From Calditrichia bacterium (GTDB lineage: Bacteria > Calditrichota > Calditrichia > Calditrichales > Calditrichaceae), in the NCBI GenBank assembly GCA_027039465.1, contig JALWEA010000263.1, positions 1 to 39,999 of the forward strand: a stretch of DNA of 39,999 nucleotides, in the 5' to 3' direction. The position numbers and the translations under genes are program-made. The notes beneath the pieces are model-generated. The model ran no database searches and was not told the origin of the DNA. It saw only the letters and a list, made by a program, of their open reading frames with translations. This document shows positions 1,670 through 37,402 of this stretch, piece after piece. Numbering within the stretch: the first letter of the stretch is position 1; each line of letters starts with the position of its first letter.

Positions 1670-1673
1670 CCGC

Positions 1674-3381: not shown

Positions 3382-3410
3382 TTGACATTTCCCATCGAAT
3401 TCATTAAAAT
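3382..3410 (+). promoter_or_regulatory. Sigma70-type promoter for the alginate locus
   Basis: TTGACA (3382-3387), a 17-bp spacer and TAAAAT (3405-3410), upstream of the regulator RBS. Confidence 0.8.
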
Positions 3411-3416
3411 CCGATC

Positions 3417-3435
3417 TGTAATACATCATACAAAT
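3417..3435 (+). promoter_or_regulatory. Candidate FadR/GntR operator 1, overlapping the predicted transcription start
   Basis: TGTAATACATCATACAAAT contains the palindrome TGTA-A-TACA and two TMATACA heptamers; a closely related motif recurs at 4195-4220. Confidence 0.65.
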
Positions 3436-3447
3436 TTTGAGGTGAAT

Positions 3448-4173: not shown

Positions 4174-4194
4174 AATTTTTTTGTCCGAAAAATA

Positions 4195-4220
4195 TGTAAT
4201 ACATAATACATAATACAAAT
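4195..4220 (+). promoter_or_regulatory. Candidate FadR/GntR operator 2, upstream of the SDR gene
   Basis: TG-TAATACA-TAATACA-TAATACA-AAT has the same flanks as site 1 with one extra heptamer; it is followed by GGAGG and the ATG at 4235. Confidence 0.62.
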
Positions 4221-4234
4221 AATCGGGAGGCATT

Positions 4235-5002
4235 ATGGAAATTCAATTGAAGAATAAAACAGCGATCGTAACCGGCAGCATTCAGGGCATCGGATTGGCT
4301 ATTGCCAAAATTTTAGCCCAAAGCGGCGCTAATGTGGTAATGAATAGTCGCAGAGACGGAAACGTCCTGCAAAACAGAGCCGAGGAAATTGCTTCCGAAA
4401 CAGGCGCAAAAGTAAAAGCCGTCTTAGCCGATGTAACCAAACGAGACGAAGCTCAGAAGTTAATCGATGCCGCAATGAGCATGGGATCGACCATTGACAT
4501 TTTGGTTAATAATGCAGGCGGGTTGGTCAAACGCGTTCCGGTTGCCGAATTCGATGAACAGCATTTTCAGACCGTCATGGATATTAATGTAAAAAGCGCC
4601 TTTTTGATGTCACATTTGGTAATGCCGTACATGAAAAAACAAAAATCCGGCAAAATCATCAATCTTTCTTCTCAAGCTGCCCATGACGGCGGCGGTAACG
4701 GTGCTGCGGCTTATTCGGCCTCCAAAGGCGCGATCTGGACTTTTACCAAATCCTTAGCCAAAGAATTAGCTTCCTTTAAAGTCAATGTGAATTGCGTTTC
4801 ACCGGGATTTATTGAATACACTTCTTTTCACGATACGTTTACGCCAAAAGAAGTACATGAAAAAATGCCTTCCATTATCCCGTTGGGTCGAACCGGTACT
4901 CCGGAAGACGTGGCGAAAGTCACCCTGTTTTTAGCCTCCGATTTGGCGGACTATTTAACCGGGCAATCCATTGAAGTTAACGGCGGTCTTTACATGCCCT
5001 AA
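4235..5002 (+). CDS. SDR oxidoreductase, probable DEH (4-deoxy-L-erythro-5-hexoseulose uronate) reductase producing KDG
   Basis: TGSIQGIG Rossmann motif, LVNNAGGLV and catalytic YSASK. It lies next to PL17, exuT and kdgF as in known alginate operons; the substrate is inferred from context. Confidence 0.85.
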   Translation: MEIQLKNKTAIVTGSIQGIGLAIAKILAQSGANVVMNSRRDGNVLQNRAEEIASETGAKVKAVLADVTKRDEAQKLIDAAMSMGSTIDILVNNAGGLVKRVPVAEFDEQHFQTVMDINVKSAFLMSHLVMPYMKKQKSGKIINLSSQAAHDGGGNGAAAYSASKGAIWTFTKSLAKELASFKVNVNCVSPGFIEYTSFHDTFTPKEVHEKMPSIIPLGRTGTPEDVAKVTLFLASDLADYLTGQSIEVNGGLYMP

Positions 5003-5018
5003 AACGGGAGCCTAACGC

Positions 5019-7211
5019 ATGAAAAAAATTCTGCTTTTCGTTTTTCTTTTTAGTTTTTCAACCGTTGGTTTGGCCAAGCCCATTGAACATCCCTGTTTGT
5101 TCATTTCGAAAAGGGGTGCATCCGAAATCCGGCAAAATTTAGACCATCTTCCTTTATTGCGGAAATCATTTTTGGAAACTAAAAAAATGGTGGATGCGGC
5201 TTTAAAACATCCCATTGAAGTTCCGCCACCAGGCGAAGCCGGAAGTTATTCCCATGAACGGCACAAACAGAATTATCGCGAAATGCGTGCCGCAGCTCTG
5301 TTGTTCCGGATTACCGGGCAGGAAAAGTATGCGCGTTTCATCCGCCGCATGTTGTTGAAATATGCCAGAATGTACCCTACGCTCGGTCCGAGTCCTTATG
5401 CCCATAACCAGGCGCCAGGTAAAATCTTTCATCAGATGCTCAATGAAACCGTTTGGCTGGTCAATACCGTACAGGCATACGATTGCATTTACGATTGGTT
5501 AACGCCCGAGGATCGTGCTCTGTTTGAAAAAAATATTTTTATTCCAATGGCACAATGGTTCACCGTGAAAAACGCCAGGGAGTTCAACCGCATTCACAAT
5601 CACGGCACCTGGTCGGTAGCAGCCGTGGGCATGCTGGGTTTGGTTATCGGAAATGACAATTATGTACAGGAAGCGCTTTACGGCACTAAAAAGGATGGCA
5701 ACGGCGGCTTTTTAAAACAGTTGGATTTGCTTTTTTCGCCGGACGGTTATTATATGGAAGGTCCTTATTACATTCGCTATGCGTTGCGTCCGTTTTTCTT
5801 ATTTGCCGAAGCCTTACAGCGCAGTAAACCGCAGCTTAAAATTTTTGCCTATCGGGACAGCATTTTAAAAAAGGCCTATTATGCGGCCATTGAAACGACC
5901 TTCCCGGACGGCGTTTTTCCACCGATTAATGATGCCTCGCGCACGATGAACGTTGAAGCGGTCGGGGTTGTAATTGCCAACGATATTGCCTATTACCGTT
6001 ATGCCTGCAATAAAGAACTATTGGGCGTAGCCAAAATGCAGGGACGCGTTATTCTGAATGATTGCGGTCTGGCTGTGGCAAAGGATTTCGGAGACGGAGG
6101 AAAAATTGACATTCCGCGCTGGAAAAGCATTGAATTTCGCGATGGTTCCGACGGTAAACAGGGCGGTCTTGGAATTCTACGAACAGGAAAGGGCGCTGAT
6201 CAAACAATGTTGCTAATGAAATACGGCGTTCACGGCAAAGGACACGGACATTTTGACGAACTCCATTTCATTCTTTACGACCACGGGAATATGGTCGTTC
6301 CCGACTACGGCTTTGCGCGTTGGATTAACATAGAGCCTAAATTCGGCGGTCGCTATTTGCCGGAAAATAAGACCTATGCCAAACAAACCATTGCCCACAA
6401 CACGGTAACTGTTGATCAGACTTCCCAAAACAAAGCCAACAGTAAAGAGGCCGATAAAGTTTCCGGCGAACGCCATTTTTTTGACGCTTCCAACCCGCAA
6501 GTGCAAGTGATGAGCGCCAGGGCAAATCATTGTTATCCAGGCGTAAAAATGCAGCGTACCATGTTTCTGATTGCCGATTCTTCGCTCTCTTATCCTTTTG
6601 TGGTGGATCTTTATCGCCTTACTTCCGAAACGCAACATACTTATGATTATGCGCTTCATTATTTGGGTCAATTTATTACGACAAATTGGAAATACGTTGC
6701 CCACGACAGTGCACAATTCCCGTTAGGTAAACAATACGGTTATCAGCATTTGTGGAACGAAGCAGAGGGTAGCGGTAACGAACCGTTTCAATTTACCTAT
6801 CTTTACGGCGGACGCTATTATTCTTTTTTAACGGCCGCCCAACCACAGGCGCAAGTCTTTTTTACCCGCATCGGCGCTCATGATCCAAATTTTAATTTGC
6901 GAGACGAGCCTGCGGTTATTCTGCGTGTCCGAAAAAAAGATTGTCTGTTTGCTTCGGTCATTGAGCCGCATGGTTATTTTAACGAAGCACAGGAGAGTTC
7001 CGAGAACCCGTATCCTTCTTTTAAAACCGTTAAAATTATCGGCAGCAATCCGCAAGGTTCTGTAATTGAAATTACGGCAAAAAGCGGCAAACGTTGGCGG
7101 ATCATGGTTACCAATCAAAAAGCGGATGCCCGCAAACAGCATCGGTTAAAATTCGGTGGTAAGGAATTTACCTGGGTGGGAAACTTTAAAGTTGTAACTC
7201 TTAGCAAATAG
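5019..7211 (+). CDS. PL17 exo-oligoalginate lyase (alginate lyase plus heparinase II/III domains) with signal peptide
   Basis: PL17 motifs HERHKQNY, QMLNETVW, RIHNHGTW, YYMEGPYY, GHGHFD and KFGGRYLPEN...QTIAHNT; signal peptide MKKILLFVFLFSFSTVGLA. Confidence 0.92.
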   Translation: MKKILLFVFLFSFSTVGLAKPIEHPCLFISKRGASEIRQNLDHLPLLRKSFLETKKMVDAALKHPIEVPPPGEAGSYSHERHKQNYREMRAAALLFRITGQEKYARFIRRMLLKYARMYPTLGPSPYAHNQAPGKIFHQMLNETVWLVNTVQAYDCIYDWLTPEDRALFEKNIFIPMAQWFTVKNAREFNRIHNHGTWSVAAVGMLGLVIGNDNYVQEALYGTKKDGNGGFLKQLDLLFSPDGYYMEGPYYIRYALRPFFLFAEALQRSKPQLKIFAYRDSILKKAYYAAIETTFPDGVFPPINDASRTMNVEAVGVVIANDIAYYRYACNKELLGVAKMQGRVILNDCGLAVAKDFGDGGKIDIPRWKSIEFRDGSDGKQGGLGILRTGKGADQTMLLMKYGVHGKGHGHFDELHFILYDHGNMVVPDYGFARWINIEPKFGGRYLPENKTYAKQTIAHNTVTVDQTSQNKANSKEADKVSGERHFFDASNPQVQVMSARANHCYPGVKMQRTMFLIADSSLSYPFVVDLYRLTSETQHTYDYALHYLGQFITTNWKYVAHDSAQFPLGKQYGYQHLWNEAEGSGNEPFQFTYLYGGRYYSFLTAAQPQAQVFFTRIGAHDPNFNLRDEPAVILRVRKKDCLFASVIEPHGYFNEAQESSENPYPSFKTVKIIGSNPQGSVIEITAKSGKRWRIMVTNQKADARKQHRLKFGGKEFTWVGNFKVVTLSK

Positions 7212-7219
7212 GAAACGAT

Positions 7220-8503
7220 ATGGCTAAAATCAAAGGTCTTCGTTGGTGGATTGTAACACTGGTTGCTTTGGCTACGGTGATTAATTACATCGATCGCAGT
7301 GCGCTGGCCATCATGTGGCCCAATATCAGCAAAGATATCGGCTTGACCAAAATCGACTATTCCCGTATTGCCATTACTTTTACCATTGCTTATGCCATCA
7401 GTCAAAGCCTGTCCGGCAGATTCTACGATTGGGTGGGTACGCGCATCGGGTTTGTTATTTCCATTATTGTTTGGTCGCTCTCGGAAATCGGACATGCGGT
7501 TGTCAGCACGGTTTTGAGTTTTGCTGTTGTACGGTTTGTACTGGGACTGGGTGAAGCGGGCAACTGGCCCGGGGCTACCAAATCCAATGCGGAATGGTTT
7601 CCCATTAAGGAACGTGCTTTTGCACAAGGCATTTTTAATTCCGGCGCGTCCATCGGATCCATTATTTCGCCGCCCTTAATCGCCTTTCTTTATTTGTGGG
7701 TCGGTTGGCGCGCAACGTTCGTCATTCTCGGCGGCCTGGGTTTGTTGTGGATTATTCCCTGGCTATTTGTGTACAAAGCTCTGCCCAAAACCCATCCGTG
7801 GTTGAGTGAAGAAGAACGAAAATACATTTTGGAAGGGCAGAAAATTGACGGCAAAGGCGAAGAAGATGGCAAGATTTTAAGTGTCGGACGCCTGTTGTCA
7901 TTCAAACAAAGCTGGTCGGTACTGGCCTCGCGCTTTTTCCTGGATCCGATTTGGTGGCTGTTTGTCTATTGGCTGCCCATCTATTTGGCGGACAAATTCG
8001 GTTTCAACATTAAACAAATCGGACTATTTGCCTGGGTACCTTACGTAGGTGCTGCACTGGGAGCGCTTTCCGGAGGCGGCATTGCGGGCTGGTTCATGCA
8101 CCGCGGTAAAACCTTGGATCAGGCGCGTAAATGGTCGATTTTGTCGGGCGGCATCATCATGTTGCCCGCTTTATTATTGACGGCTTACGCGGCCAAACCG
8201 ATTATTGCAGTTTTATTGATCGCATTTATTCTATTCGGATTTCAGGTCTCGATCGGTAACATTCAAACCCTGCCGAGTGATTTTTTTGTGGGTAAAAATG
8301 TGGGAACCGTTGCCGGAATGGGCGGAACGACGGCGGCCATCGGAGTTATCATTACGACCTATTTGGTGCCGCTCATTACCAAAACTTCCTACATCCCGTT
8401 TTTTATGTTAGGCGCTGCTTTGGTTCCTTTGGGAATTTTTAGCGTCTACTTTTTCGGCGGGAAAATACAACGTATTCAAGCAGGAGTGCAAGAAGATGTC
8501 TGA
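7220..8503 (+). CDS. exuT: MFS hexuronate transporter, ExuT-like
   Basis: LRWWIVTLVALATVINYIDR, GEAGNWPGATK..AEWFP..ERA.AQGIFNSG and RFFLDPIWW motifs, with about 12 hydrophobic segments. Confidence 0.88.
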   Translation: MAKIKGLRWWIVTLVALATVINYIDRSALAIMWPNISKDIGLTKIDYSRIAITFTIAYAISQSLSGRFYDWVGTRIGFVISIIVWSLSEIGHAVVSTVLSFAVVRFVLGLGEAGNWPGATKSNAEWFPIKERAFAQGIFNSGASIGSIISPPLIAFLYLWVGWRATFVILGGLGLLWIIPWLFVYKALPKTHPWLSEEERKYILEGQKIDGKGEEDGKILSVGRLLSFKQSWSVLASRFFLDPIWWLFVYWLPIYLADKFGFNIKQIGLFAWVPYVGAALGALSGGGIAGWFMHRGKTLDQARKWSILSGGIIMLPALLLTAYAAKPIIAVLLIAFILFGFQVSIGNIQTLPSDFFVGKNVGTVAGMGGTTAAIGVIITTYLVPLITKTSYIPFFMLGAALVPLGIFSVYFFGGKIQRIQAGVQEDV

Positions 8504-8834
8504 TTCGTATCACATCAAAGATGAACAGGTAAAATGGGAACCTGCCGGCGAAGGAATCGAACGGAAAATCATGGGTTACCAACCCAACTTAATGCTGGTC
8601 AAAGTACATTTTAAAAAAGGAGCCGTCGGATACAAACACACCCATCCGCACGAACAGGTTTCGTATGTCCTTTCCGGGAAATTTGAAGTGGAAGTGGATG
8701 GAAAAAAAGAAATACTAAAAGCGGGCGATGCCTTTGTAATTCCCGCAAATATTGAGCACGGAGCAGTCTGTTTGGAAGACGGGATTTTGATCGACACTTT
8801 TTCACCGATGCGTGAAGATTTTTTAAATCCATAA
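8496..8834 (+). CDS. kdgF: KdgF-like cupin (unsaturated uronate ring-opening/tautomerisation)
   Basis: 112-aa cupin with HTHPHEQVSYV...HGAVCLE.G.LIDTFSPMREDFL; overlaps the exuT 3' end by 8 nt. Confidence 0.88.
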   Translation: MSDSYHIKDEQVKWEPAGEGIERKIMGYQPNLMLVKVHFKKGAVGYKHTHPHEQVSYVLSGKFEVEVDGKKEILKAGDAFVIPANIEHGAVCLEDGILIDTFSPMREDFLNP

Positions 8835-13148: not shown

Positions 13149-13805
13149 ATGAGCAGAGAGGAAATTGTTACCAAAGCCGAACAGGCGGGTATTGTTGCTG
13201 TTATTCGTCTGCATGACGGCCAATCCGTTTTGCCGGTGGTTGATGCTTTGCTTGCGGGCGGGGTTTTTGCCCTTGAGGTTACGATGACCGTTCCCAATGC
13301 CATCGAATTAATTCAAATGCTTTCCCAAAGAAAGGATGATCGAATTCTTTTGGGGGCAGGCACGGTGGTAGATTTGGAAACCGCCAGGAATGTCATCGAT
13401 TCCGGCGCGGATTTTATTGTGAGCCCGGTTTTAATTCCCGAATTAATCCGTTTTGCCCATGAACATGAGAAACCGGCCTTTATCGGTGCCTTTTCTCCGA
13501 CGGAAATTTTCCAGGCCTGGCAACAGGGAGCCGATGTGGTTAAGGTTTTTCCGGCATCGCGCCTGGGTGCAAAATATTTCAAAGACATTCACGGCCCGCT
13601 GCCTCAAATTAAATTAACTCCTACCGGAGGCGTCAATCTGGAAAATGCGCAAGAATTTATCCGTAATGGCGCCAGCTTTTTGGGCGTCGGTACGTCTTTG
13701 CTGGACAAAAAATTAATTGCCGATGGCGATTGGCAAGCGTTAACGGAGCGGGCGGCCAAGTTCAAGCAGGCCGTTGAGCAGGCACATAAGGAATTGGGAG
13801 GATAG
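13149..13805 (+). CDS. eda: KDPG/KHG aldolase (Eda/KdgA)
   Basis: IVAVIR, LEVTMTVP, GAGTV, GADFIVSP, VKVFPA and PTGGVNLEN motifs. Confidence 0.93.
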   Translation: MSREEIVTKAEQAGIVAVIRLHDGQSVLPVVDALLAGGVFALEVTMTVPNAIELIQMLSQRKDDRILLGAGTVVDLETARNVIDSGADFIVSPVLIPELIRFAHEHEKPAFIGAFSPTEIFQAWQQGADVVKVFPASRLGAKYFKDIHGPLPQIKLTPTGGVNLENAQEFIRNGASFLGVGTSLLDKKLIADGDWQALTERAAKFKQAVEQAHKELGG

Positions 13806-14831
13806 ATGGAAAAGTCCTTTGTTACCTTTGGTGAAATCATGCTACGTTTGGCTCCTTTTAATAAAGAACGTTTCGTGCAAGCCGGTATTTTTCAAGCGAC
13901 TTATGGCGGTGGTGAGGCCAATGTGGCGGTTTCGCTGGCTCTTTTGGGGAATAAAGCGCGGTTTGTAACACGCTTGCCGGATAATCCGCTCGGGCAGGCC
14001 GCTTTGAATTATTTGCGCGGCTTTGGCGTAGACACAACTATGATCGTTAGAGGCGGGCCGCGTTTGGGCATTTATTTTTTGGAGCATGGCGCTTCCATCC
14101 GCCCTTCAAAAGTGGTGTATGACCGTGCGCATTCATCCATGGCGGAAGTACAACCGCAGGATTTTGATTGGGAGGTCATCTTCGGCGATGCCCATTGGTT
14201 TCACATTACGGGCATTACGCCCGCTTTGAGCCCTGTGTTAGCGGAGATTAGTCTGACGGCTGTGCAAAAAGCCAAAGAGAAAGGGCTGACGGTTAGTTGC
14301 GATCTGAACTACCGCAAAAAACTGTGGACGCGTAAGCAAGCAAATAAAGTTATGAGCAAACTGGTGCAATTTACGGATTTGATTATCGCCAACGAAGAAG
14401 ACGCTGCCGACATTTTCGGCATCGAAGCGGAAACAACCGATGTTACTTCAGGACATTTGGATGCGGAACATTACAAATCGGTGGCGCGGCAGCTTAAAGA
14501 AACAGGCAAAGCGGGAATGGTTGCCATTACGCTGCGCGAGAGCCTTTCCGCGTCCGATAATAATTGGTCGGCCATGTTGTACGACGGGCGGGAATTTTTC
14601 TTCAGCCGCAAATATGCCATTCATTTGGTGGATCGCGTGGGCGGCGGGGACAGTTTCGGCGCCGGATTGATTCACGGTTTAAATAAATTTTCGGACAAAC
14701 AAAAAGCATTGGAGTTTGCCGTGGCTGCTTCCGCATTGAAACAAACCATTCCGGGAGATTTTAATTTGGTCACGGAGGACGAGGTTCTGAATATTGTTAA
14801 AGGCGATTTATCCGGACGGGTGCAACGTTAA
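13806..14831 (+). CDS. kdgK: 2-keto-3-deoxygluconate kinase (PfkB family)
   Basis: TFGEIMLRL, GGGEANVA, DLNYRKKLW and VDRVGGGDSF motifs; the ATG directly follows the eda stop codon. Confidence 0.92.
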   Translation: MEKSFVTFGEIMLRLAPFNKERFVQAGIFQATYGGGEANVAVSLALLGNKARFVTRLPDNPLGQAALNYLRGFGVDTTMIVRGGPRLGIYFLEHGASIRPSKVVYDRAHSSMAEVQPQDFDWEVIFGDAHWFHITGITPALSPVLAEISLTAVQKAKEKGLTVSCDLNYRKKLWTRKQANKVMSKLVQFTDLIIANEEDAADIFGIEAETTDVTSGHLDAEHYKSVARQLKETGKAGMVAITLRESLSASDNNWSAMLYDGREFFFSRKYAIHLVDRVGGGDSFGAGLIHGLNKFSDKQKALEFAVAASALKQTIPGDFNLVTEDEVLNIVKGDLSGRVQR

Positions 14832-14840
14832 CGGGTTGGA

Positions 14841-26517: not shown

Positions 26518-29232
26518 ATGCGGAGATTAGGAGTAACATTGAAATCAATCATTCTTTTCCTCATTTTTAGTTGGACTTTGGTAGCGCAGGCGGAAACGAT
26601 TCTTGTTAAAAATGCACAAGAGATCAGTGACCATCTCGGTCAGTTACTTCCGGGCGATACGTTAATCATGCGGGATGGCTATTGGAAAAACCAGCGTATC
26701 GAATTCAAAGGGCAGGGTACTCCTGAAAATCCCATTGTACTTAGAGCACAAACGCCTGGTCAGGTCTGGATTACCGGGAAGTCTAATTTACGCATCGGCG
26801 GGCAGTACGTGGTTGTGGACGGAGTTTATTTTGTCAACGGTTACAGCCCGGACGGCGGGGTGATTGAATTTCGCGACGCTTCCAAGCATGCGGCCAATCA
26901 TTGTCGCCTAACCAATTCGGCCATTGTGGATTTTAATCCGCCCAGCAAAAGCACCGATTACAAATGGGTTTCCTTGTACGGCCAATACAATCGTGTCGAT
27001 CACTGTTATTTTGCCGGGAAAAATCATCAAGGTACCACATTGGTCATTTGGATGTCAACAACGCCTAATTACCATCGCATCGATCACAATCATTTCGGGC
27101 CAAGACCGGAATTGGGTTCCAACGGCGGTGAAACCATTCGCATCGGCACCAGTGATTATTCAATGTACGACTCTTATGCAACGGTTGAATGGAATTATTT
27201 TGAACATTGCGACGGCGAGATCGAGATTATTTCCAATAAGTCCTGCAAAAATACTTACCGTTATAACACATTTGAATCATGCAAGGGAACGTTGACCTTA
27301 AGACACGGGAACGCTTGCAGTGTGTACGCCAATTTCTTTTTCGGAAACAATTCGGATCACACCGGGGGCGTACGCATTATCGGAGAGGATCATCGTGTTT
27401 ACAATAATTATTTTCAGGATTTGCAAGGGACGGATTATCGGGCAGCCATTTCCATGATGAACGGTGTTCCGAATTCGCCGCTTAATAGGTATTTTCAGGT
27501 AAAGCGGGCAAAAGTACTGTTTAATACCATTGTGAATTGTTATGAACCTTTGGTGATTGGCGCCGGAGCCGATGACGAAAAAACGCTTCCACCCAAAGAT
27601 TGTATTATTGCCAATAATGCGATTCTCTCACCGTATAATCACCCGATTGTTACGTTTGTTTCTCAGCCGGAAAATATGACGTGGGAAGGTAATATTTTTT
27701 ACGGACCGGATCCTGGTTTTGAAAACATTACGGGAATTACAGTGCAAGATCCCTTGTTGCAACTTTCTGCCGACGGATTGTATCGCCCGAAGGAAAGCAG
27801 TCCTTTAATCGGTGCATCGCAGGACACATTTTCCTTTGTCACTATGGATATGGACGGGCAGGTCCGTACGGATCCCAAAGATGTCGGGGCCGATCAAATC
27901 AGTACCGACTCCGTGACGGTTTATCCCTTGAAAGCGGGCGATGTCGGCCCGAGCTGGTACCCTCCGCAATCACCTCCTGTCCCGGTTGTTCAGGTTCGGG
28001 AAGGGAGGGATTCCTTGCAAGCGGCCATGGAAAAAGCGGATGACGGGGATATTATCGAGTTAATTAGCGACGGCGGCGTGTACAGCTTAAGCGCACCCGT
28101 TTCCATTGATAAAAATATTACCATTCGTACTAAAACCGGTTTGGCACAATCTCCGAGTATTGTACCTGCAACGGGAATCGACACCTTGAACGCTTTATTT
28201 CGCTGGACGAATGCACGACAATTACGCCTGCAAAATCTGATTGTAGACGGGCAAAACAAGGTAAGAAACATTTTTGAGAATGGAATAAAACATGTGGCTT
28301 TACAGTGTGATTCCGTTACAATCTTTAATACGGGCTTCGATTCAAGCGGTGCGATCTTTTTTGCCTTCGCAGGGAGTTTAATTGACACGATGCAATTTGA
28401 AAATTGCTCTTTTTTTCATGGGCGCGGACACGGATTAGTGGCCAACGGCGAGGCGCAGGGCAGCGGGCTTTACAACATCGGTGTTCTTAAGTTGGAAAAT
28501 TGTACGGCTTGGGACTATGCGCAATCGTTTTTGGATGTTTACGGCGGCGATGACATTCCTTTTACTCCTTGCCCTCAAATTTCCGTTAACCATTGCACCT
28601 TCCATGCCTGTGCTATTGATGGCGGCGCTGTAATCGATGCGGATCAGGTGGATTTTACCTGGATTAAAAATTCGATTTTCAGCCAGAGCAGTCCCGAGCA
28701 AGCAGCTCTGAAAATATATGGTCAGGCAGCTTCGGTGGACTACTGTGATTTTTACGCTTCCGGTTCCGTTGAGTTGTTTCGCGAAGCACAAAAAGGTAAT
28801 CATATTTATCAACTTGATCCGTTATTCAAAGATGCCGATCAAGGGGACTTTGGGTTGCAGCAGAATTCTCCGCTTTGGGCCAAAGCGGATGACGGTACGG
28901 CGCTTGGCGATTTGCGCTGGACCGGGCAAGTTATGGCTATTGGTGACAGGTCGTTTACGTCCGTTGCCGAACGGTGGAAGATATTAAGCAACTATCCCAA
29001 TCCGTTTAACGGTCAAACAACCATAGGATTCGTAAGCCCGTTTACGGGAATGGTGCATTGGCAGGTTTTTAATCTTCGGGGGCGTCGCATAACGCAAGGC
29101 CGTTTTTCCGTACAAAAAGGTCAGCTTTTACATTGGAACTGGGATGCCGGAAATTTGGCTTCGGGAATTTATTACTTGACGGTGGAAGGCAAATCGGAAC
29201 GGTTTGTAACTAAAATGATTTTAGTGAGGTGA
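26518..29232 (+). CDS. PL6 alginate lyase (chondroitinase B-type beta-helix) plus a second beta-helix module and a T9SS-like CTD
   Basis: PL6 motifs NGGETIRIG, GEIEIISNKS (catalytic Lys), LTLRHG (catalytic Arg) and GGVRIIGEDH. The second module ends DDGTALGDLRW and the CTD reads NYPNPFN...LASGIYYL. An alternative start is TTG 26539. Confidence 0.9.
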   Translation: MRRLGVTLKSIILFLIFSWTLVAQAETILVKNAQEISDHLGQLLPGDTLIMRDGYWKNQRIEFKGQGTPENPIVLRAQTPGQVWITGKSNLRIGGQYVVVDGVYFVNGYSPDGGVIEFRDASKHAANHCRLTNSAIVDFNPPSKSTDYKWVSLYGQYNRVDHCYFAGKNHQGTTLVIWMSTTPNYHRIDHNHFGPRPELGSNGGETIRIGTSDYSMYDSYATVEWNYFEHCDGEIEIISNKSCKNTYRYNTFESCKGTLTLRHGNACSVYANFFFGNNSDHTGGVRIIGEDHRVYNNYFQDLQGTDYRAAISMMNGVPNSPLNRYFQVKRAKVLFNTIVNCYEPLVIGAGADDEKTLPPKDCIIANNAILSPYNHPIVTFVSQPENMTWEGNIFYGPDPGFENITGITVQDPLLQLSADGLYRPKESSPLIGASQDTFSFVTMDMDGQVRTDPKDVGADQISTDSVTVYPLKAGDVGPSWYPPQSPPVPVVQVREGRDSLQAAMEKADDGDIIELISDGGVYSLSAPVSIDKNITIRTKTGLAQSPSIVPATGIDTLNALFRWTNARQLRLQNLIVDGQNKVRNIFENGIKHVALQCDSVTIFNTGFDSSGAIFFAFAGSLIDTMQFENCSFFHGRGHGLVANGEAQGSGLYNIGVLKLENCTAWDYAQSFLDVYGGDDIPFTPCPQISVNHCTFHACAIDGGAVIDADQVDFTWIKNSIFSQSSPEQAALKIYGQAASVDYCDFYASGSVELFREAQKGNHIYQLDPLFKDADQGDFGLQQNSPLWAKADDGTALGDLRWTGQVMAIGDRSFTSVAERWKILSNYPNPFNGQTTIGFVSPFTGMVHWQVFNLRGRRITQGRFSVQKGQLLHWNWDAGNLASGIYYLTVEGKSERFVTKMILVR

Positions 29233-29235: not shown

Positions 29236-31158
29236 TTGAAGCATTTTGCATTCTTTCTAACGCTGGGCTTTGTCTTTTTTATTAATGCCATTGTTCAGGG
29301 GCAGGAAACATGGCAATCGAAAATTGTATTCTACAATGATGACGGTCATTTGCAGTACGTACGGGATTCGCTGGGAAATGTCATTCCTGATTTCAGTTAT
29401 GCCGGTTACAAAAACAGTGATGAACCTATTCCGGATGTTCCGGTTGTGCTTAGTATTGAACCCGTACAAGGTGACAATACCGCCCACATTCAGGCCGCCA
29501 TCGATTCCGTAGCAGCCATGGCACCGGATTCCAACGGATTTCGCGGAGCGCTTTTGCTTAAAGCGGGAATCTATCCTATTTGGGGAACAATTTACGTGGA
29601 TGAAAGCGGCATTGTGCTGCGCGGCGAAGGCGATGACGCAGATTCAACGCAAAACACGATTATTGTGGCCAAAGGGAATAGTCCCAAGCAGAGAACCGTA
29701 CTTGTGGCCGGAGGTAATGACGAAACAAAATGGCGCGATATGGTGCCGGGAACCAAATCGTACATTACGGACGATACCGTTTTGGTCGGTTCAAGAACTT
29801 TTCATGTACAAAAACCGAGTTATTATCATGTAGGTGATAACATCATTATTTTCCATCCCTGCACGGATGAATGGCTTCAGGCTATTGATTACGGGGGCAC
29901 GCATTCCAACGACCCGGACGCAGAGCCAGGCGTTGATGTTCCCTGGGAGGTAGGCAGCCAACCCATTGTGTACAACAGATATATTAAAAAAATAGAAGGT
30001 GACGAAATTACCATTGATGCGCCTCTTTACAATCATTTTATTAAAGCGCAGGCCAAATCTTATGTGTACAAATATTTGCGTCATAAACTTAAAACCAATA
30101 TCGGCATCGAAAATTTGCGTATTGATATTGAAACAGTGGGCGGTACCAATGAAAACCATGCCTGGAACGGCATTGATCTGTTTTTGATTGAAGATGCCTG
30201 GGTGCGGAATTGTACGGTTTTGCATTTCGGCGAATCGGGTTTTCGGACACATACGGCAACCCGTGTTACTATAGAAAATTGCAAAGCTTTGGATCCGGTA
30301 TCCAAAATAACCGGCGGACGGCGTTACAATTTTGAAGCTTATACCGCTTCTCAGCAAATTTTGGTTAAAGAATGTTTGGCGACCAACGGTCGGCACCATT
30401 ACATGTCCAACGGAACTTCCTGGGCTAGTGATATTGTATTTTTGAATTGCAAATCATCGGGGGCGTATGCTTCCAGCGAAGGACATCGGCGTTGGTCACA
30501 AGGGTTGCTTTACGACAACCACAAGGAATTGGACGGTCCTCGGCCCGGTTACAATCCGCGATTGTTGGGTTTGTATTGCCGTGGCTACTACGGCACCAGT
30601 CACGGATGGGCCGCTGTTCATTCGGTGGCCTGGAATTGCGATGTGGCGCAGGGTGATTTGATTGTGCAGAAACCGCCCACAGCTCAAAATTACGCCATTG
30701 GTTGCAAAGGAAAACGCATTACCGGCAAAAAACCGCCGGCTTCTTTTGACGAGCCTGAGGGTTACATTGAAGGAAGTAATAAAGACGGACTCTATCCGCA
30801 ATCATTGTTTCTGGCACAGTTAACCGAGCGACATAATGCAACGGGTATTAGGAATGATAATCGCAAAATGGCGTTACCCAAAACAATCCGTCTGGTTCGT
30901 GCTTATCCCAATCCGTTTAATCAGCAATTGACCTTTCGATTCGATATAAGCAGCAGCGAACGCGTGCAGTTGCGTATTTTTGATATTGCGGGAAGGCTGA
31001 TTTATACGCGGAATTTCGGTTTGCTATCCGGCGGCAGTCATGTTTACCATTGGGGCGGAAAAGATTCGTCCGGATTGGATGTGGGAAGCGGTATTTACTT
31101 TTTGCAATTATCCGTTGCTGCGCAAAAAGAGACGGTTCGCGTTTTATTGATCAAATAA
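29236..31158 (+). CDS. Secreted pectin-lyase-fold (beta-helix) protein of unassigned family with an FlgD/T9SS-like CTD
   Basis: TTG start after GAGGTG; signal peptide; IPDFSYAGY, GDNTAHIQAAID, SGIVLRGEG and GIENLRI motifs; CTD AYPNPFN...WGGKD..G..VGSGIYFL. Confidence 0.75.
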   Translation: MKHFAFFLTLGFVFFINAIVQGQETWQSKIVFYNDDGHLQYVRDSLGNVIPDFSYAGYKNSDEPIPDVPVVLSIEPVQGDNTAHIQAAIDSVAAMAPDSNGFRGALLLKAGIYPIWGTIYVDESGIVLRGEGDDADSTQNTIIVAKGNSPKQRTVLVAGGNDETKWRDMVPGTKSYITDDTVLVGSRTFHVQKPSYYHVGDNIIIFHPCTDEWLQAIDYGGTHSNDPDAEPGVDVPWEVGSQPIVYNRYIKKIEGDEITIDAPLYNHFIKAQAKSYVYKYLRHKLKTNIGIENLRIDIETVGGTNENHAWNGIDLFLIEDAWVRNCTVLHFGESGFRTHTATRVTIENCKALDPVSKITGGRRYNFEAYTASQQILVKECLATNGRHHYMSNGTSWASDIVFLNCKSSGAYASSEGHRRWSQGLLYDNHKELDGPRPGYNPRLLGLYCRGYYGTSHGWAAVHSVAWNCDVAQGDLIVQKPPTAQNYAIGCKGKRITGKKPPASFDEPEGYIEGSNKDGLYPQSLFLAQLTERHNATGIRNDNRKMALPKTIRLVRAYPNPFNQQLTFRFDISSSERVQLRIFDIAGRLIYTRNFGLLSGGSHVYHWGGKDSSGLDVGSGIYFLQLSVAAQKETVRVLLIK

Positions 31159-31171: not shown

Positions 31172-32356
31172 ATGAGTGTTTCTTCCAAATTCTTTTTTTT
31201 AATTTCATTCGTTTTTTTATTACTGCTGTCATCTTGTAAATCCAAATTTAATTTACGCCAAATTGAAAAAGGGCGCGTATTGTGTCAGGCAAATTTTGCT
31301 TTGCGTGAAATTCCCATTACAATCACCGCTTTTCCTTGCTCTCGCAGCGCCGGAGACATACACGAATTCTATTCCGAAGGCGATTATTGGTGGCCGAATC
31401 CCAAGAATCCGAACGGGCCGTATATTCGCAGGGACGGATTGAGTAATCCCGATAATTTCATTAAACATCGCCAAATGCTCATGCGCCTAAGTTATTATGT
31501 TCCCGCTCTAACCGCGGCTTATCTTTTGACGAACAATAAAAAATATGTGGCAGCCGTTGAGAAGCATTTAAAAGCATGGTTTATTGATCCCGATACCAAA
31601 ATGAATCCCAATCTGCTGTTTGCACAGGCCATTAAAGGACGTGTGACCGGCCGAGGTATCGGTATTATTGACGGTATTCATCTGGTTGATGTAGCCCAGG
31701 CGGTACGCGTGTTGCATAAATGCCGCGCTATTAACGATGATGTATTTCGGCAGGTTCGGGATTGGTTCCGGCAATTTTTGCACTGGATGACAACGCATCC
31801 GTACGGTATCAAAGAACGCGATCACGGGAATAATCATTCCACCTGTTGGGCCGTTCAAGTAGCTGCCTATGCCCGCCTGGTCGGGGATAGTTCGCAATTG
31901 AATTACGTGCGTCGAATGTTTAAAACTGTGCTTATTCCTCAGCAAATGGCTCCCGACGGTAGTTTTCCGAAAGAACTGAAACGTACCAAACCTTACAATT
32001 ATTCGCTTTTTAATTTGCAGGCCTTTACCGTTTTAAGCGCATTGGCTTCCAAAAACAATGACTTGTGGTATTTTAAGTTGCCGGATGGCCGCGGATTGCA
32101 GAAAGCGGTGCAGTTTATGTTTCCGTACATTAAACACAAGTCGCGTTGGCCGTTCGGAAAGGACGTTATGTACTGGGATCAATGGCCGGTACGCGATGTA
32201 ACACTTTTGTTTGCGGGATTTAAATATCACAAGCCGGAATATTTACGGGTGTGGCGCAAATTACCGGCCGATCCTACCGAATATGAAGTGTTGCGAAATT
32301 ATTTTGTAAGGCAACCGCTGCTGTGGCAGGAAGAGTTGGGGGATAATTCGAAATGA
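31172..32356 (+). CDS. Alginate-lyase-domain lipoprotein, PL38-like
   Basis: Lipobox LSSC; FYSEGDYWWPNP...PYIRRDG, WF.DP.TKMNPNL, GIID, NNHS and RTKPYNYSLFNL motifs. Confidence 0.82.
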   Translation: MSVSSKFFFLISFVFLLLLSSCKSKFNLRQIEKGRVLCQANFALREIPITITAFPCSRSAGDIHEFYSEGDYWWPNPKNPNGPYIRRDGLSNPDNFIKHRQMLMRLSYYVPALTAAYLLTNNKKYVAAVEKHLKAWFIDPDTKMNPNLLFAQAIKGRVTGRGIGIIDGIHLVDVAQAVRVLHKCRAINDDVFRQVRDWFRQFLHWMTTHPYGIKERDHGNNHSTCWAVQVAAYARLVGDSSQLNYVRRMFKTVLIPQQMAPDGSFPKELKRTKPYNYSLFNLQAFTVLSALASKNNDLWYFKLPDGRGLQKAVQFMFPYIKHKSRWPFGKDVMYWDQWPVRDVTLLFAGFKYHKPEYLRVWRKLPADPTEYEVLRNYFVRQPLLWQEELGDNSK

Positions 32357-32507: not shown

Positions 32508-33767
32508 ATGCGTTATTTGATCGCTATCCTTTTAATAGTCGTCATTTTATCTTCCTGCGGGAAAAATGTTAAAAATGTAAAAATAACCAATACGCTTGAC
32601 ATGGAAAGAAAAAACGCCCTGGTCGTCTTAGACTTTGCTCGATTGTTCCCTAATTTTTCCGTTACTAAAACAACCCGTGTATCGGTCCTCAATAACGGCA
32701 ATCCGATACCGACTCAATGGTCTTTTGATCATCGCCTGATCGTACTCCTTTCCTTCAAACCGCACGAAACCAAAACGCTTTCCGTTAGCCTAAATAACGG
32801 TGTGTCAAATAAATCGACCCAACGTGCCCATGCTGAAATTTCCATCCGTAAAGACGCTGAATTCACTGGAAAAAAATGGGTCGGCGGCCGATTTGTCAAT
32901 GTCACAAAATGTACGGTTGACAAAAAACATTTCATTCACGACGCGCTTATTCGTTACGAAGGGCCAGGATTGGAATCGGATAAAATCGCTTACCGCATTT
33001 ATTTGGATAAACGCAATGCCATGGATGTTTTCGGTAAAAAAACATCGAAAATCATTTTGCCTATTGTAGGACACGACACTTCCGCAACCTATCACGAAAT
33101 GAACACGTGGGGCATGGATATTCTGAAAGTAGGCCCAACCTTTGGCGCAGGATCGTTTGGGCTTTTCCAATGTGATTCGTCCTTAGAACGTAACCTGAAA
33201 AACCATCGCATGGCAGCGCTTCCGAAAATATTGCAACCTGAAAATACGGATAGTATGATTTGCACTATTCTTGAAGACGGCCCGCTGCGCGCTGGCTTTC
33301 GTATTCTGTACAAAGGTTGGAAAATCGGCAATCAAAAAGTGGATGTCGCGGCAGAACATTTTATTCAGGCCGGAAGCTATGTTGTTCGGAATGAAATCGA
33401 ACTTTTAAACGGGCAAAATATTGGAATGGCCTTTGGAATTATGGAACCGCCAACATGTTCTTCTTATGTTTTTACCGAGAACGGGTATTGGAAAAACGTG
33501 CTCGGCATTCATTCGTTAGCCGGTGATTCTTTGACCGTATTTTTCTATTTCAATCCGAAAAATGTAAAGGGATATGACGCCCATCTTGACGGGAATAGCG
33601 TTGTAATGGCGCCTTCCGGAACACAAAAAATTACATTTTGGTCCGGCGCACTTTGGCAAAGTAATTTTAAAGGAGAAAACTTTAAAAACGTTTGCAATCG
33701 ATTTGCAAAGGAAGAAAGTGCATGTTTGGCCAATCCGTTGCGTGTTGAGTATCCGCTTACCAAATAA
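32508..33767 (+). CDS. DUF4861-family lipoprotein
   Basis: AGGAG RBS; lipobox LSSC; YEGPGLESDKIAYRIYLD.RNA.DVFGK and YH....WGMDILKVG motifs. Confidence 0.75.
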   Translation: MRYLIAILLIVVILSSCGKNVKNVKITNTLDMERKNALVVLDFARLFPNFSVTKTTRVSVLNNGNPIPTQWSFDHRLIVLLSFKPHETKTLSVSLNNGVSNKSTQRAHAEISIRKDAEFTGKKWVGGRFVNVTKCTVDKKHFIHDALIRYEGPGLESDKIAYRIYLDKRNAMDVFGKKTSKIILPIVGHDTSATYHEMNTWGMDILKVGPTFGAGSFGLFQCDSSLERNLKNHRMAALPKILQPENTDSMICTILEDGPLRAGFRILYKGWKIGNQKVDVAAEHFIQAGSYVVRNEIELLNGQNIGMAFGIMEPPTCSSYVFTENGYWKNVLGIHSLAGDSLTVFFYFNPKNVKGYDAHLDGNSVVMAPSGTQKITFWSGALWQSNFKGENFKNVCNRFAKEESACLANPLRVEYPLTK

Positions 33768-33785
33768 AAAGGATGATTGAAAATC

Positions 33786-36700
33786 ATGACAAAACGTTTA
33801 TTACTTCTTATTTTTGTTTTTCTGCAATTCGCACATTCTCAACCGACTTTTGATGCTGCCGTCAAAAAAGTGGCCGATCGGGTCTGGCAGATGGAACAAT
33901 GGCGAGCCGGGCGTTGGCAACTGTACACGGAAAACGGACAATGGAAATACCGTAAATCGGTTAATTGGTTGTCCGGATTTTTAGGGGGTGAGCTGTGGAA
34001 TATGTATCGTCTGACCGGTGATGAACGTTTCAAAAAGAGTGCATTGCATTTTGCCGGTTCATTGATTCCTTACGCCCGTAAGAACGACACGCACGATATG
34101 GGGTTTATTTTTTTACCAACCGTGGTACGCGCTTTTAAGATAACCGGAGATCCGAAATTTAAAAAAGCCGGGCTTCAGGCGGCTGAAATGTTATGGCGAC
34201 GATACAACCGCAAAGGCCATTTTATTCGTGCCTGGGGCAAATTGGGAACGTCAAAAAAAGCAGGCTGGAGCATCATTGATACGATGATGAATTTGGAGCT
34301 GTTGTTTTGGGCTTCAAAAGTGAGTGGGAATCCCAGGTTTGCCGAAACGGCTTACGCGCACGCCATAACCTGCATGAAACAACACATCCGCCCGAATGGT
34401 TCGTCGTTTCATGTGGTGATTTTTGATCCGCAAACAGGAAAAGTTCTAAAAAAACAAACACATCAGGGCGCCGCCGATACCTCCACCTGGGCGCGCGGTC
34501 AGGCCTGGGGTATTTACGGCTTTGCCACGGCCTATCACTACACCCGGGACGAACGTTTCTTGCGTTCCGCGCAACGCATGGCCGATTTTATGATTGCGCA
34601 CCTGCCAAAGGATGGGATTCCGTTTTGGGATTTAACCAATCCCGCCGGTCGAAATTATCGGGATGCTTCCGCCGGAGCAGTGCTGGCAGCCGGTTTGTAT
34701 CGCTTGGCTTCGCTGGTGCACAACGGATCCTTAATGTTGCGTTATCAACAAGTGGCTGATGAAATCATGGCCTCTTTGATAGATCGATACACGTTTTGGC
34801 ACAGTTCGCGCCCGGAGGAGCAGGGTTTGTTAATTCACCAGGTTTACAATTATCCCAAAGGCTGGGCTGTCGATGAATCCTATCCTGCGGGAGATTATTA
34901 TTTTACCGAGGCTTTGCTAACTTACCGGCAGCGTAAGCACTGGCTCAAACCCGAGGCCATAAGGCAGAAAATCAATTTGGACGCCGATTGGCTGTATTTG
35001 CCAAAGGATGTAACCGAACTTTCGGACTTATCCGCTTTTACCGGTGATTGGCAACGGGTGGATTTGCCGCACACCTGGAATCGCTTTGATGCAATGGACG
35101 GTGAACCTGGTTATCGTCGCTCGGGCAGTTGGTACAAAAAACGATTATTCATACCGCCTTCCCTAAAAAATAAGCAACTGTGGCTCTATTTTGAAGATGC
35201 CAATACCCGTTGCAAGGTATGGGTAAACGGCCGTTTGGTCGGAAATCATGTTGGCGGGTATTTGGGCTTTCGCATGAATATTACTCCCGCCGTTGCCCTC
35301 GGAAAAGAAAACGACATTTTGGTATATGTCTCCAATGCCTACAATCCCGATTTAATTCCGTCACAAAAATCCGATTTTTTCATTTACGGCGGGTTAACCC
35401 GTGATGTTTGGCTGGAAGTGCTTCCGCAAATTTTTATTGAAAAGATTTTAATCTCAATGCCGGAAGTTTCCCTGCATTCGGCTGCGACACAAGTAAAAAT
35501 GACGGTTTTTAGCCCTAAAAAACAAACGGTAAAACTGGACGTTCAAGTCATAGATGATCAAAAAAACGTCTGTTTACAAACAGTCAAAACAAGCGCATTA
35601 CAGACCGGTAGCAATGAAATTCTTGTGAACTTGCCGGAATTAAAAAATCCGCAATTGTGGTCGCCAAATGCGCCGCACCTTTACAAACTGAAGGCGGAAC
35701 TTAAAATAGGCAATCAAATTGTTGATATCTTTAGTGAAATATTCGGCTATCGTTGGTTTGAATTCAAAAAACACGGCCCTTTTTATTTGAACGGAAAACG
35801 TTTGCTGTTAAGGGGTACGCATCGCCACGAAGAACAAGCGGGTTACGGTGCGGCCATGCCCAATGATTTGCATCGCAGGGATATGGAAGCCATTAAAAAG
35901 ATGGGTGCAAATTTTGTCCGTTTGGCCCATTATCCTCAGGATCCGGAAGTGTATCGGGCTTGCGATTCCTTGGGCTTGCTTGTTTGGGATGAGCTTCCGT
36001 GGTGCCGCGGAGGAATGGGAGGCAAGACCTGGAAGGAGAACATCAAACGTTTGTTAAAAGAACAGATTTTGCAAAATTTTAACCACCCGTCAATTATTAT
36101 TTGGTCTTTGGGCAATGAACTGAATTGGCTGCCCGATTTTCCGAATGGCGGTAATGACGATTCGCTGAAAGCCATGTTGCGAACGCTCAATAGGATAGCC
36201 CATCAATTGGATCCTTCGCGAGTGACCGCCGTGCGAAAATACAAAGGAGCCGTGGGAATTGTGGATGTTTTTTCACCATCCATTTGGGCCGGTTGGTATT
36301 CGGGTGTCTACAAAAATTATCGCAAGGCATTGGAAAAATCACGGGAGGAATATCCGCGTTTCTTTCATGCCGAATACGGAGGCGCAAGCCATTTCGGAAG
36401 GCATGATGAACAGGTGATCACGGGCGAAGGTAAAATTGAAAAAAGCGGCTGGGAAGAAGATGAAGTGCAGACTGCGGTTAAAAACATTGCCCGCACTAGT
36501 GATTGGAGCGAAAATTATATCGTGGATTTGTTTGACTGGCATCTGCATGTTAGCGAGCAGCTTCCGTGGTTCACGGGATCCGCGCAATGGATTTTTAAAG
36601 ATTTCGGCACGCCGTTGCGCCCTGAAAATCCCATTCCTTATGTTAATGAAAAGGGATTAATGGATCGCGCCGGAAGGCCGAAAGACGCCTATTACGTTTT

Positions 36701-37313
36701 TAAAAGCTATTGGAACACCGACGATCCGTTTTGTTACATTGAATCACACACCTGGACGGATCGTTACGGGCCTAAAGGAAAAGCGCGGCAAGTTTGCGTT
36801 TACAGTAATTGCGGGCAGGTGGAATTGAAATGGAACGGCAAATCGTTGGGCATGCGTAAAAAAGATATTCGTAAATTTCCGGCCGAAAACTTGCATTGGC
36901 AGGTGCCGTTCGTTGAAGGGGAAAATCGTTTAATTGCCGTCGGTTTCAAAAACGGTAAACGGGTTGCCAGCGATACGCTATTGATTCATTATCGTTTTAG
37001 TCGGCCAAAGCCACCAGTGAAGTTAAAAGTGAACGCCCGGAAGGTTGGCGCGGCGCTTTTTCGCATCACGGTTTTGGCGGTGGATGCTAAAGGCAGAAGA
37101 AGTTTAAATTACAATAAGCGTGTCTATTTTAGCGCATTGCAGGGCGGTAAGCTGCAGGAAAATTTAGGCACTCCGGACGGCAGTTCGATTATTGAAATGT
37201 CCAACGGAAAAGCGCAGATTCTTTTTCGAAAATATCCCGATCAAAAAGCGGTTGTCGAAGTGCGTAATCAGGATTTTAAGGGAAGCTATTTGGTCTTGCT
37301 CCCTTGGCAGTAA
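33786..37313 (+). CDS. Secreted fusion of a GH88 unsaturated uronyl hydrolase (N-terminal) and a GH2 beta-hexuronidase-like hydrolase (C-terminal)
   Basis: GH88 motifs NDTHDMGF, IIDTMMNLELL, WARGQAW and RDASA; GH2 motifs LPHTWN, HVGGY, VRLAHYPQ, WSLGNE, GWY, AEYG and NEKG. It is a single uninterrupted ORF; the start is ATG 33786 or TTG 33777. Confidence 0.87.
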   Translation: MTKRLLLLIFVFLQFAHSQPTFDAAVKKVADRVWQMEQWRAGRWQLYTENGQWKYRKSVNWLSGFLGGELWNMYRLTGDERFKKSALHFAGSLIPYARKNDTHDMGFIFLPTVVRAFKITGDPKFKKAGLQAAEMLWRRYNRKGHFIRAWGKLGTSKKAGWSIIDTMMNLELLFWASKVSGNPRFAETAYAHAITCMKQHIRPNGSSFHVVIFDPQTGKVLKKQTHQGAADTSTWARGQAWGIYGFATAYHYTRDERFLRSAQRMADFMIAHLPKDGIPFWDLTNPAGRNYRDASAGAVLAAGLYRLASLVHNGSLMLRYQQVADEIMASLIDRYTFWHSSRPEEQGLLIHQVYNYPKGWAVDESYPAGDYYFTEALLTYRQRKHWLKPEAIRQKINLDADWLYLPKDVTELSDLSAFTGDWQRVDLPHTWNRFDAMDGEPGYRRSGSWYKKRLFIPPSLKNKQLWLYFEDANTRCKVWVNGRLVGNHVGGYLGFRMNITPAVALGKENDILVYVSNAYNPDLIPSQKSDFFIYGGLTRDVWLEVLPQIFIEKILISMPEVSLHSAATQVKMTVFSPKKQTVKLDVQVIDDQKNVCLQTVKTSALQTGSNEILVNLPELKNPQLWSPNAPHLYKLKAELKIGNQIVDIFSEIFGYRWFEFKKHGPFYLNGKRLLLRGTHRHEEQAGYGAAMPNDLHRRDMEAIKKMGANFVRLAHYPQDPEVYRACDSLGLLVWDELPWCRGGMGGKTWKENIKRLLKEQILQNFNHPSIIIWSLGNELNWLPDFPNGGNDDSLKAMLRTLNRIAHQLDPSRVTAVRKYKGAVGIVDVFSPSIWAGWYSGVYKNYRKALEKSREEYPRFFHAEYGGASHFGRHDEQVITGEGKIEKSGWEEDEVQTAVKNIARTSDWSENYIVDLFDWHLHVSEQLPWFTGSAQWIFKDFGTPLRPENPIPYVNEKGLMDRAGRPKDAYYVFKSYWNTDDPFCYIESHTWTDRYGPKGKARQVCVYSNCGQVELKWNGKSLGMRKKDIRKFPAENLHWQVPFVEGENRLIAVGFKNGKRVASDTLLIHYRFSRPKPPVKLKVNARKVGAALFRITVLAVDAKGRRSLNYNKRVYFSALQGGKLQENLGTPDGSSIIEMSNGKAQILFRKYPDQKAVVEVRNQDFKGSYLVLLPWQ

Positions 37314-37344
37314 ACATTGACCGATTTTGAGCTTAAATAAATAA

Positions 37345-37372
37345 GGGCAATTTCTGTGAAAAGAAATTGCCC
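37345..37372. terminator. Probable bidirectional terminator between convergent genes, ending the locus
   Basis: gggcaatttct-gtgaaa-agaaattgccc forms a perfect 11-bp stem with AT-rich flanks. Confidence 0.75.
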
Positions 37373-37402
37373 CCGTTTAAAAAATGGACTAAAAAAACCG
37401 TT

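Follow-up and report, generated by a model that had tools for sequence, protein, structure and literature searches.

A recurrent GH88-GH2 fusion beside a PL38 lyase in a Calditrichia polyuronate island: a probable role in the use of beta-glucuronan

We analyzed a stretch of 39,999 nucleotides from a Calditrichia bacterium (assembly GCA_027039465.1, contig JALWEA010000263.1, positions 1 to 39,999 of the forward strand; hereafter the window), in which one gene encodes a GH88 domain joined in frame to a GH2 domain. We propose that this protein probably acts on oligomers of beta-glucuronan, with a lyase working first, the GH88 domain second and the GH2 domain, as a glucuronidase, last. The proposal draws on the domains, residues, recurrence and gene neighbourhoods observed here, from which we infer the substrate, the order of the steps and the location of the protein. 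The most informative neighbour of the fusion is a PL38 lyase gene, which a first-pass annotation of the same DNA did not mention. The features that carry the argument are as follows.

33786..37313, plus strand: GH88-GH2 fusion, 1175 aa from ATG; model pLDDT 89.8, pTM 0.87
33858..34940, plus strand: GH88 domain, with D104 (nt 34095) and D165 (nt 34278) equivalent to UGL D88 and D149
34953..37310, plus strand: GH2 domain of the PmGUS/BuGUS-3 clade, with R712, H715, N777-E778, W834, Y838, E863, W935, R945 and N954-x-K956
31172..32356, plus strand: PL38 lyase of the EGDYWWP clade, with a lipoprotein-type N-terminus, two genes upstream of the fusion

Integrity and Recurrence of the Fusion Gene

The first-pass annotation had described an intact GH88 fused in frame to an intact GH2, and this description was confirmed. 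The open reading frame (ORF) runs from 33777 (TTG) or 33786 (ATG) to 37313 without an internal stop, and Pfam placed GH88 at aa 44-334 and the GH2 N-terminal, Ig, TIM and DUF4982 domains at aa 441-1061. The best 120 of 1828 hits were all full-length fusions, covering 94-100% of the query at 49-97% identity. The motifs noticed earlier, THD, IID, GNE, AEYG and NEKG, correspond to D104, D165, E778, E863 and N954-x-K956, which were invariant in all 120. A check of read coverage across the junction had also been proposed: the junction, near 34940-34970, was bridged by contigs of two other runs, X2 (34567-35260) and X3 (33700-35502), which belong to one study and are both distinct from X1, the possible source run. 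Because the 120 homologues span nearly the whole query and these contigs cross the junction, an assembly artefact was ruled out.

Where taxa were named, the homologues came from Ignavibacteria, Marinimicrobia/Fidelibacterota and Bacteroidetes, and a single label read Caldisericaceae. Of the named loci, the closest two, labelled Caldisericaceae and Caldithrix, were each 69% identical. The labelled datasets matching the gene were mostly hydrothermal vent metagenomes, with no RNA datasets among those listed. Judged by these sequence matches, the fusion protein occurs in many marine and sediment bacteria. It begins with a signal-peptide-like stretch, no C-terminal sorting domain was found in it, and from its sequence it is likely periplasmic. 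The linker between the two domains is about ten residues long. The confidence values of the full-length AlphaFold model suggest a fixed domain arrangement; the model is no evidence of channelling. Both domains belong by sequence to known families, and the fusion is a variant assembled from known parts. We found no paper naming a GH88-GH2 fusion in a literature search outside which lay most subscription papers, bioRxiv supplements and CAZy/PULDB listings; four papers that mention GH88, GH2 and PL38 together concern other topics, as judged from their listing, and the term GH88 was absent from the main text and two supplements of a 2025 GH2 subfamily paper. PMC6712278 and PMC9498756 provided general background.

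The GH88 Domain

The GH88 domain passed the curated Pfam cut-off (PF07470, 61.7 bits against 26.6). In the alignment with the Bacillus GL1 UGL, D104 and D165 fall on D88 and D149, and the D88N mutant chain in the PDB deviates exactly at the position aligned to D104. The UGL pocket set is also conserved: W61, H103, W150, H209, Q227, W235, R237, W241 and Y354 of the fusion correspond to UGL W42, H87, W134, H193, Q211, W219, R221, W225 and Y338 (UGL numbering counted from the alignment), and these positions together with the two aspartates were invariant in 119-120 of the 120 homologues. We take the roles of these pocket residues to be those of their UGL equivalents. With regard to the (alpha/alpha)6 barrel typical of GH88, the predicted model is all-helical over aa 22-384, the fold-search list having been taken up by GH2 matches. 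A loop particular to the fused lineage has the consensus YNYHKxWGVDE, with K358 present in 112 of 120. The GH88 substrates described in the available parts of two reports are glycosaminoglycan (GAG) disaccharides (PMC12269599; bioRxiv 10.64898/2026.05.19.726164), and the literature examined held no report of GH88 activity on an unsaturated bond between two glucuronic acid (GlcA) units.

The GH2 Domain

The closest solved relatives of the GH2 domain, by both sequence and fold, were PmGUS (598 bits; TM 0.91 of target) and BuGUS-3. The uronidase signature proposed for this domain was upheld. The portion of a GH2 subfamily paper available to us lists ten pocket positions, namely E, N-E, R, H, two aromatics, Y, R and NxK (PMC12243196, Table S3), and the domain has the expected residue at each: E863, N777, E778, R712, H715, W834, W935, Y838, R945 and N954xK956. 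At the first aromatic position it carries Trp (W834), as does the GH2_8 example in the same portion (PMC12243196). As to a possible place in CAZy subfamily GH2_2, the PDB codes looked for did not occur in the supplements of that paper. The mannosidases of GH2_13 and GH2_17 described there have an R-x-W arrangement (R408/W410 and R387/W389), with Trp in place of the loop-2 His; that His sits near C2/C3, and the C2-modified activities are all placed in another GH2 group (PMC12243196). The fusion has R712-L-A-H715, with the Arg and His present in all 120 homologues, and a beta-mannosidase-like pocket was thus ruled out. Since the ten hexuronidase positions are occupied as expected and a His stands where GH2 mannosidases have Trp, the GH2 domain is, on its sequence, unlikely to be the beta-mannuronidase that the first-pass annotation had put forward.

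In the tree the domain grouped with PmGUS/BuGUS-3, apart from the BuGUS-1-like GH2. Three clade marks, R741, R817 and W834, were present in 101 of 101 ingroup sequences and in none of 28 outgroup sequences (ingroup support 0.94); these residues likely hold the next uronate, with the two arginines presumably binding a second anionic sugar. The nearest solved relatives are named glucuronidases, and D530 and W935, which presumably contribute to C4 selectivity, were invariant in the homologues. Some GH2_4 enzymes take both glucuronide and galacturonide, according to the part of the subfamily paper at hand (PMC12243196). Among NCBIfam models, those for beta-galactosidase were all below cut-off, and so were those for beta-glucuronidase. 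Some sources label the homologues beta-galactosidase, a label that we dropped because the uronate motif is present.

The PL38 Partner and the Link to Glucuronan

We surveyed 94 distinct loci, the best 80 of 609 candidates and 14 from a 300-genome sample, after two duplicates had been dropped. All 15 fused loci contained PL38, and 5 contained KduI and 1 a sulfatase; of the 79 unfused GH2 loci, 59 had GH88, 28 had PL38, 14 had alginate-type genes and 6 had a sulfatase. In every fused locus, and in the same-genus genome G001 (16/16), a PL38 of one clade lay one or two genes upstream of the fusion. The idea that the two domains act in sequence on lyase products fits this constant partner. In the sampled genomes of the Flavobacterium phylum the GH2 clade was present in 16 of 300. 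Further fusions among the same parts (GH2-PL38 and lyase-GH88-PL38, both in L057) also count in favour of the proposal; there, two adjacent genes (L057:7652-15808) encode a PL12-like lyase-GH88-PL38 protein of 1518 aa and a GH2-PL38 protein of 1192 aa. In two other loci we observed a GH2-DUF4861 fusion (L106:7966-11253) and, next to PL38 and the same GH2 clade, a GH29 fucosidase fused to GH88 (L113:4683-7865); the latter could indicate a fucosylated glucuronan.

The link to glucuronan comes from BlCUL1, a PL38 of Bacteroides luhongzhouii that cuts beta-1,4-glucuronan with unsaturated di-glucuronate as the main product; its activity was 31.1 U/mg on cellouronate and 3.7 on alginate (12%), with none on hyaluronate or chondroitin sulfate C (PMC12423752). 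That study postulates an unknown partner, expected to be an exo-lyase, and leaves the locus undescribed (PMC12423752). We read the locus from metagenome contigs rather than from the type strain. The published forward primer matched 20 metagenome loci, and the gene at the match ends, by eye, in the peptide of the reverse primer. The gene order was HTCS-GH88-GH2-PL38-BlCUL1-SusC-SusD; the four enzyme genes were whole or nearly whole in 6 of the 20 loci, and the remaining 14 had contig-end cuts or frameshifts, with no other arrangement in the stretch covered. The GH2 of this locus matched PmGUS with 1340 bits and shares 40% identity with that of the window. The window PL38 is 48% identical to the PL38 beside BlCUL1, with which it groups in the tree, and 34% to BlCUL1, and BlCUL1-clade genes adjoin 5 of 15 fused loci. 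As a side observation, PDB entry 3NFV, labelled an alginate lyase, is likely a glucuronan lyase, since it is a close relative of BlCUL1 (L127:9944-11146; 710 bits).

A second unfused form was found in 24 Flavobacterium-type loci, with the order HTCS, SusC, SusD, GH88, GH2, an optional lyase and a BuGUS-1-like GH2. The nearest Flavobacterial relatives of the window GH2, at 52-56% identity, belong to this form. When PL17, PL7, PL6 and PL38 were sought in 17 genomes carrying this unfused cassette, which are kin and not independent, 15 had no match. Among the substrates that the first-pass annotation had considered, glucuronan is favoured, and neither a beta-mannuronidase nor alginate as target is supported: besides R712-x-x-H715 and the clade of the GH2, a lyase with proven activity on glucuronan lies next to the unfused cassette, which persists without the four lyase families. 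The optional lyase, present in 11 of the 24 loci, was predicted to form a jelly roll. A sequence search of the PDB with this gene gave nothing useful; in the fold comparison its top match was a PL20 glucuronan lyase (Z 18.3, rmsd 3.1, 209 aligned). Because that match was tied with heparinase I and only 1.5 Z above an alginate lyase, the PL20 likeness is only a hint. An unclassified jelly-roll lyase family (L010:13919-14806 and 15 relatives) has a weak match to PF14099; its modelled fold comes closest to the PL20 glucuronan lyase and heparinase I, which makes it a candidate bacterial glucuronan lyase.

Proposed Pathway

In the proposed pathway, PL38 would cut beta-1,4-glucuronan to leave 4,5-unsaturated ends. 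The GH88 domain (D104/D165) would hydrate the unsaturated end and release 5-keto-4-deoxyuronate. The GH2 domain, with E778 as acid/base, E863 as nucleophile and N954, K956, R945 and Y838 for the carboxylate, would then remove saturated GlcA unit by unit. For a disaccharide GH88 alone would be sufficient, and the GH2 would serve longer chains and saturated ends. KduI and KduD would carry the first product to 2-keto-3-deoxygluconate (KDG), and GlcA would enter through UxaC/UxuB or a glucuronokinase. The cassette would sit inside a polyuronate island that also serves alginate, with uptake and KdgK/Eda likely shared.

The downstream genes are consistent with this pathway. In 6 of 16 fused loci kduI came directly after the fusion. 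All 33 carrier genomes tested had KduI; among 60 relatives it was present in 9 of 10 carriers and 11 of 50 non-carriers. Downstream of the fusion, the same-genus genomes G001 and G002 carry a block of kduI, kduD, uxaC, a glucuronokinase-like gene, genes for a TRAP transporter, uxaE and uxuB. The source genome has this block at the edge of contig C55, with kduD as its first gene. The glucuronate block (C55, about 1-15000; L083; L001) was observed to contain uxaC, uxuB, uxaE, a putative hexonate epimerase of the nickel-dependent type and a glucuronokinase-like gene with galU and gnd. A search of the source genome found no uxuA, which together with the epimerase hints at a mannonate-to-gluconate epimerase route replacing the dehydratase.

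Evidence against the Proposal and Alternative Substrates

Several observations weigh against glucuronan as the substrate. Alginate association is strong: of the 15 fused-carrier genomes tested, 14 had PL17, and among the 60 relatives it was present in 9 of 10 carriers versus 7 of 50 non-carriers, as tight a link as that of KduI. The first-pass annotation had proposed a survey of co-occurrence with PL6/PL17, and the association was borne out, with alginate-type genes in 11 of 15 fused loci. KduI itself is not a specific marker, since four relatives that lack the fusion (G045, G049, G051 and G055) have kduI immediately next to PL17; as decisive proof of a glucuronate substrate it was therefore downgraded. 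kduI was also not found in the source genome (95% complete, 681 contigs). The window PL38 groups with the neighbour PL38 of BlCUL1 (support 0.85), outside the clade of BlCUL1, and the family is polyspecific, with members acting on alginate or glycosaminoglycans according to the portions available of four reports (PMC11890756, PMC13027841, PMC11790493, PMC9029943). In the tree the fused GH88 forms its own lineage, apart from the GH88s of Bacteroidota and 37% identical to the one beside BlCUL1; specificity is therefore not transferable from those enzymes. Finally, in five Flavobacterium-type genomes whose locus lacks the PL20-like gene, no full copy of it was present elsewhere. The co-location with alginate genes may reflect shared uptake and a shared lower pathway for mixed polyuronate detritus. 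The kduI-PL17 adjacency raises, separately, the question of whether KduI/KduD also handle the alginate monomer.

The alternative that survives best, which we nevertheless hold to be rather unlikely, keeps the same chemistry and changes the target to a heteropolymer: a hyaluronan- or chondroitin-like glycan, a GlcA-rich brown-algal fraction or ulvan side units. The PL38s of Akkermansia and Roseihalotalea cut hyaluronan and chondroitin in the sections of the reports at hand, the described GH88 substrates are GAG disaccharides as noted above, the window has a PL12-like gene (14841-17132), and 9 sulfatase matches and one GH20 were counted in the source genome. That BuGUS-3 accepts sulfated heparan oligomers would also fit. 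However, the window contains no sulfatase or hexosaminidase, sulfatases occurred in only 7 of 94 loci, no PL8 was found in the source genome, and BlCUL1 was inactive on both GAG substrates (PMC12423752). The conserved cassette also lacks enzymes for a second sugar, with no GH20 or GH89 in the 99 of 211 rarer neighbours that were scanned.

A role on alginate appears improbable. Alginate gives an unsaturated end of the erythro type; the end that GH88 is known to accept is threo, its C2 epimer. The fused GH88 would have to be re-tuned to this end, with or without the GH2 releasing mannuronate, and would form a hydrolytic arm beside PL17. The tight linkage of the fused form to PL6, PL17 and KdgF would fit this, as would the separate lineage of the fused GH88, the side activity of BlCUL1 on alginate, the alginate lyases described among other PL38s in partly available reports, and the position of kduI beside PL17 in four relatives. 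In addition, a Verruconatronum GH88 operon was up on alginate, and the accessible part of that study assigned it to oligomers from expression alone (PMC13274419). Against it, the GH2 retains the His near C2/C3 where mannosidases have Trp, its nearest Flavobacterial relatives lie in 15 genomes without the tested lyases, the island already has a putative PL17 exolyase, and a literature search for a mannuronidase or guluronidase gave two papers, both concerned with pectin oxidation according to their listing.

Least probable of all is that the fusion serves only co-expression and co-localisation of enzymes with separate substrates: split forms do occur in the order GH2-PL38-GH88 (G031, G038), the GH88 and GH2 trees are incongruent and GH88 was not seen nearby in 20 of 79 unfused GH2 loci (some on short contigs), but two GH88 lineages pair with the same GH2 clade, the other 59 unfused loci keep GH88, and the short linker and full-length pTM argue against it.

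Other Genes of the Window

Around the fusion the window has PL6, a secreted protein of 640 aa, PL38, DUF4861, the fusion and a hairpin, in this order. The remaining features are listed here.

3382..8834, plus strand: alginate block of GntR, SDR, PL17-like oligoalginate lyase, MFS and KdgF-like cupin
13149..14831, plus strand: Eda-type aldolase and KdgK-type kinase, from profile matches
26518..29232, plus strand: PL6 (Chondroitinas_B) secreted lyase, from Pfam
29236..31158, plus strand: protein of 640 aa that ends in a FlgD-Ig tail, found in 10 of 15 fused loci; its Atlas look-alikes bear the name pectate-lyase-like
32508..33767, plus strand: DUF4861 protein, N-terminus of the lipoprotein type; in 4 of 16 fused loci it separates PL38 from the fusion
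37343..37374, no strand assigned: candidate terminator, a 13-pair hairpin between the fusion stop and a converging gene, by pattern match only

A promoter scan was at chance level (22 versus 17.3 +/- 4.1). The same-strand run of the window, with PL17-like, KdgF-like cupin, SDR, KdgK, Eda and PL6 genes, has all the gene types of an alginate locus. The PL17-like gene (5019-7211) scored 644.7 bits to the oligoalginate lyase model, below its cut-off of 1400; by position and context the SDR may be a DehR-like reductase of DEH, the alginate monomer, and Eda and KdgK would form the lower pathway common to KDG from either polymer. The PL12-like protein, inside the alginate island, is distant from heparinase III (E 7e-20). 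The 640-aa protein is conserved, secreted and without a Pfam catalytic domain, and could be a new lyase or epimerase. Several island proteins have tails like those of the type IX secretion system (T9SS) or FlgD-Ig tails. Between 17168 and 24763 lies a conserved block without SusD, comprising a TonB-dependent receptor, a 740-aa protein and PorV/PorQ-family and OMPP1-like proteins. At the contig start, an ORF with three VanZ-like stretches (39-1319) is unrelated to the fusion.

Significance and Comparison with Known Systems

If the proposal is true, it supplies the missing last step in bacterial use of beta-glucuronan and fills the step left open by the BlCUL1 study, with unsaturated di-glucuronate consumed hydrolytically rather than by an exo-lyase. 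The PmGUS/BuGUS-3 clade would also gain a natural polymer substrate, and the upkeep of a dedicated cassette in soils, sediments, vents and guts would suggest that beta-glucuronan is sufficiently common there. On this reading, GH88 or PL38 genes within alginate islands should not automatically be taken as alginate enzymes.

Among known systems, PmGUS (6D7J/6DXU) and BuGUS-3 (6D1P) share with the fusion GH2 the clade, the fold, the active-site set, the Trp-for-Tyr swap and two extra arginines, R741 and R817 being BuGUS-3 R391 and R466 as counted on the alignment. They are stand-alone gut enzymes with no N-terminal GH88, 37-38% identical to the fusion GH2 in structural alignment. The UGLs of Bacillus GL1 (1VD5), Pedobacter (3WIW) and Streptococcus (2ZZR) share the catalytic Asp and the pocket (E about 1e-60 to 1e-63), but are single-domain enzymes, whereas the fused lineage has its own loop. 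The GH137-GH2_8 fusion on rhamnogalacturonan II likewise places a GH2 glucuronidase behind another glycoside hydrolase; its partner and substrate differ, and in the part of the paper available its two modules act on different side chains, which cautions against assuming a relay (PMC12243196). The BlCUL1 locus resembles the window in its neighbouring GH88, PmGUS-type GH2 and PL38 of the same clade, and differs in its unfused genes, its SusC/D, its other GH88 lineage and the lack of alginate genes in the 20 kb seen. The lyase-only route of Brevundimonas, with CUL-I and CUL-II, shares the polymer and the PL38 first step (PMC12423752); it ends in an exo-lyase, whereas the finish by the fusion would be hydrolytic, with half the carbon released as free GlcA.

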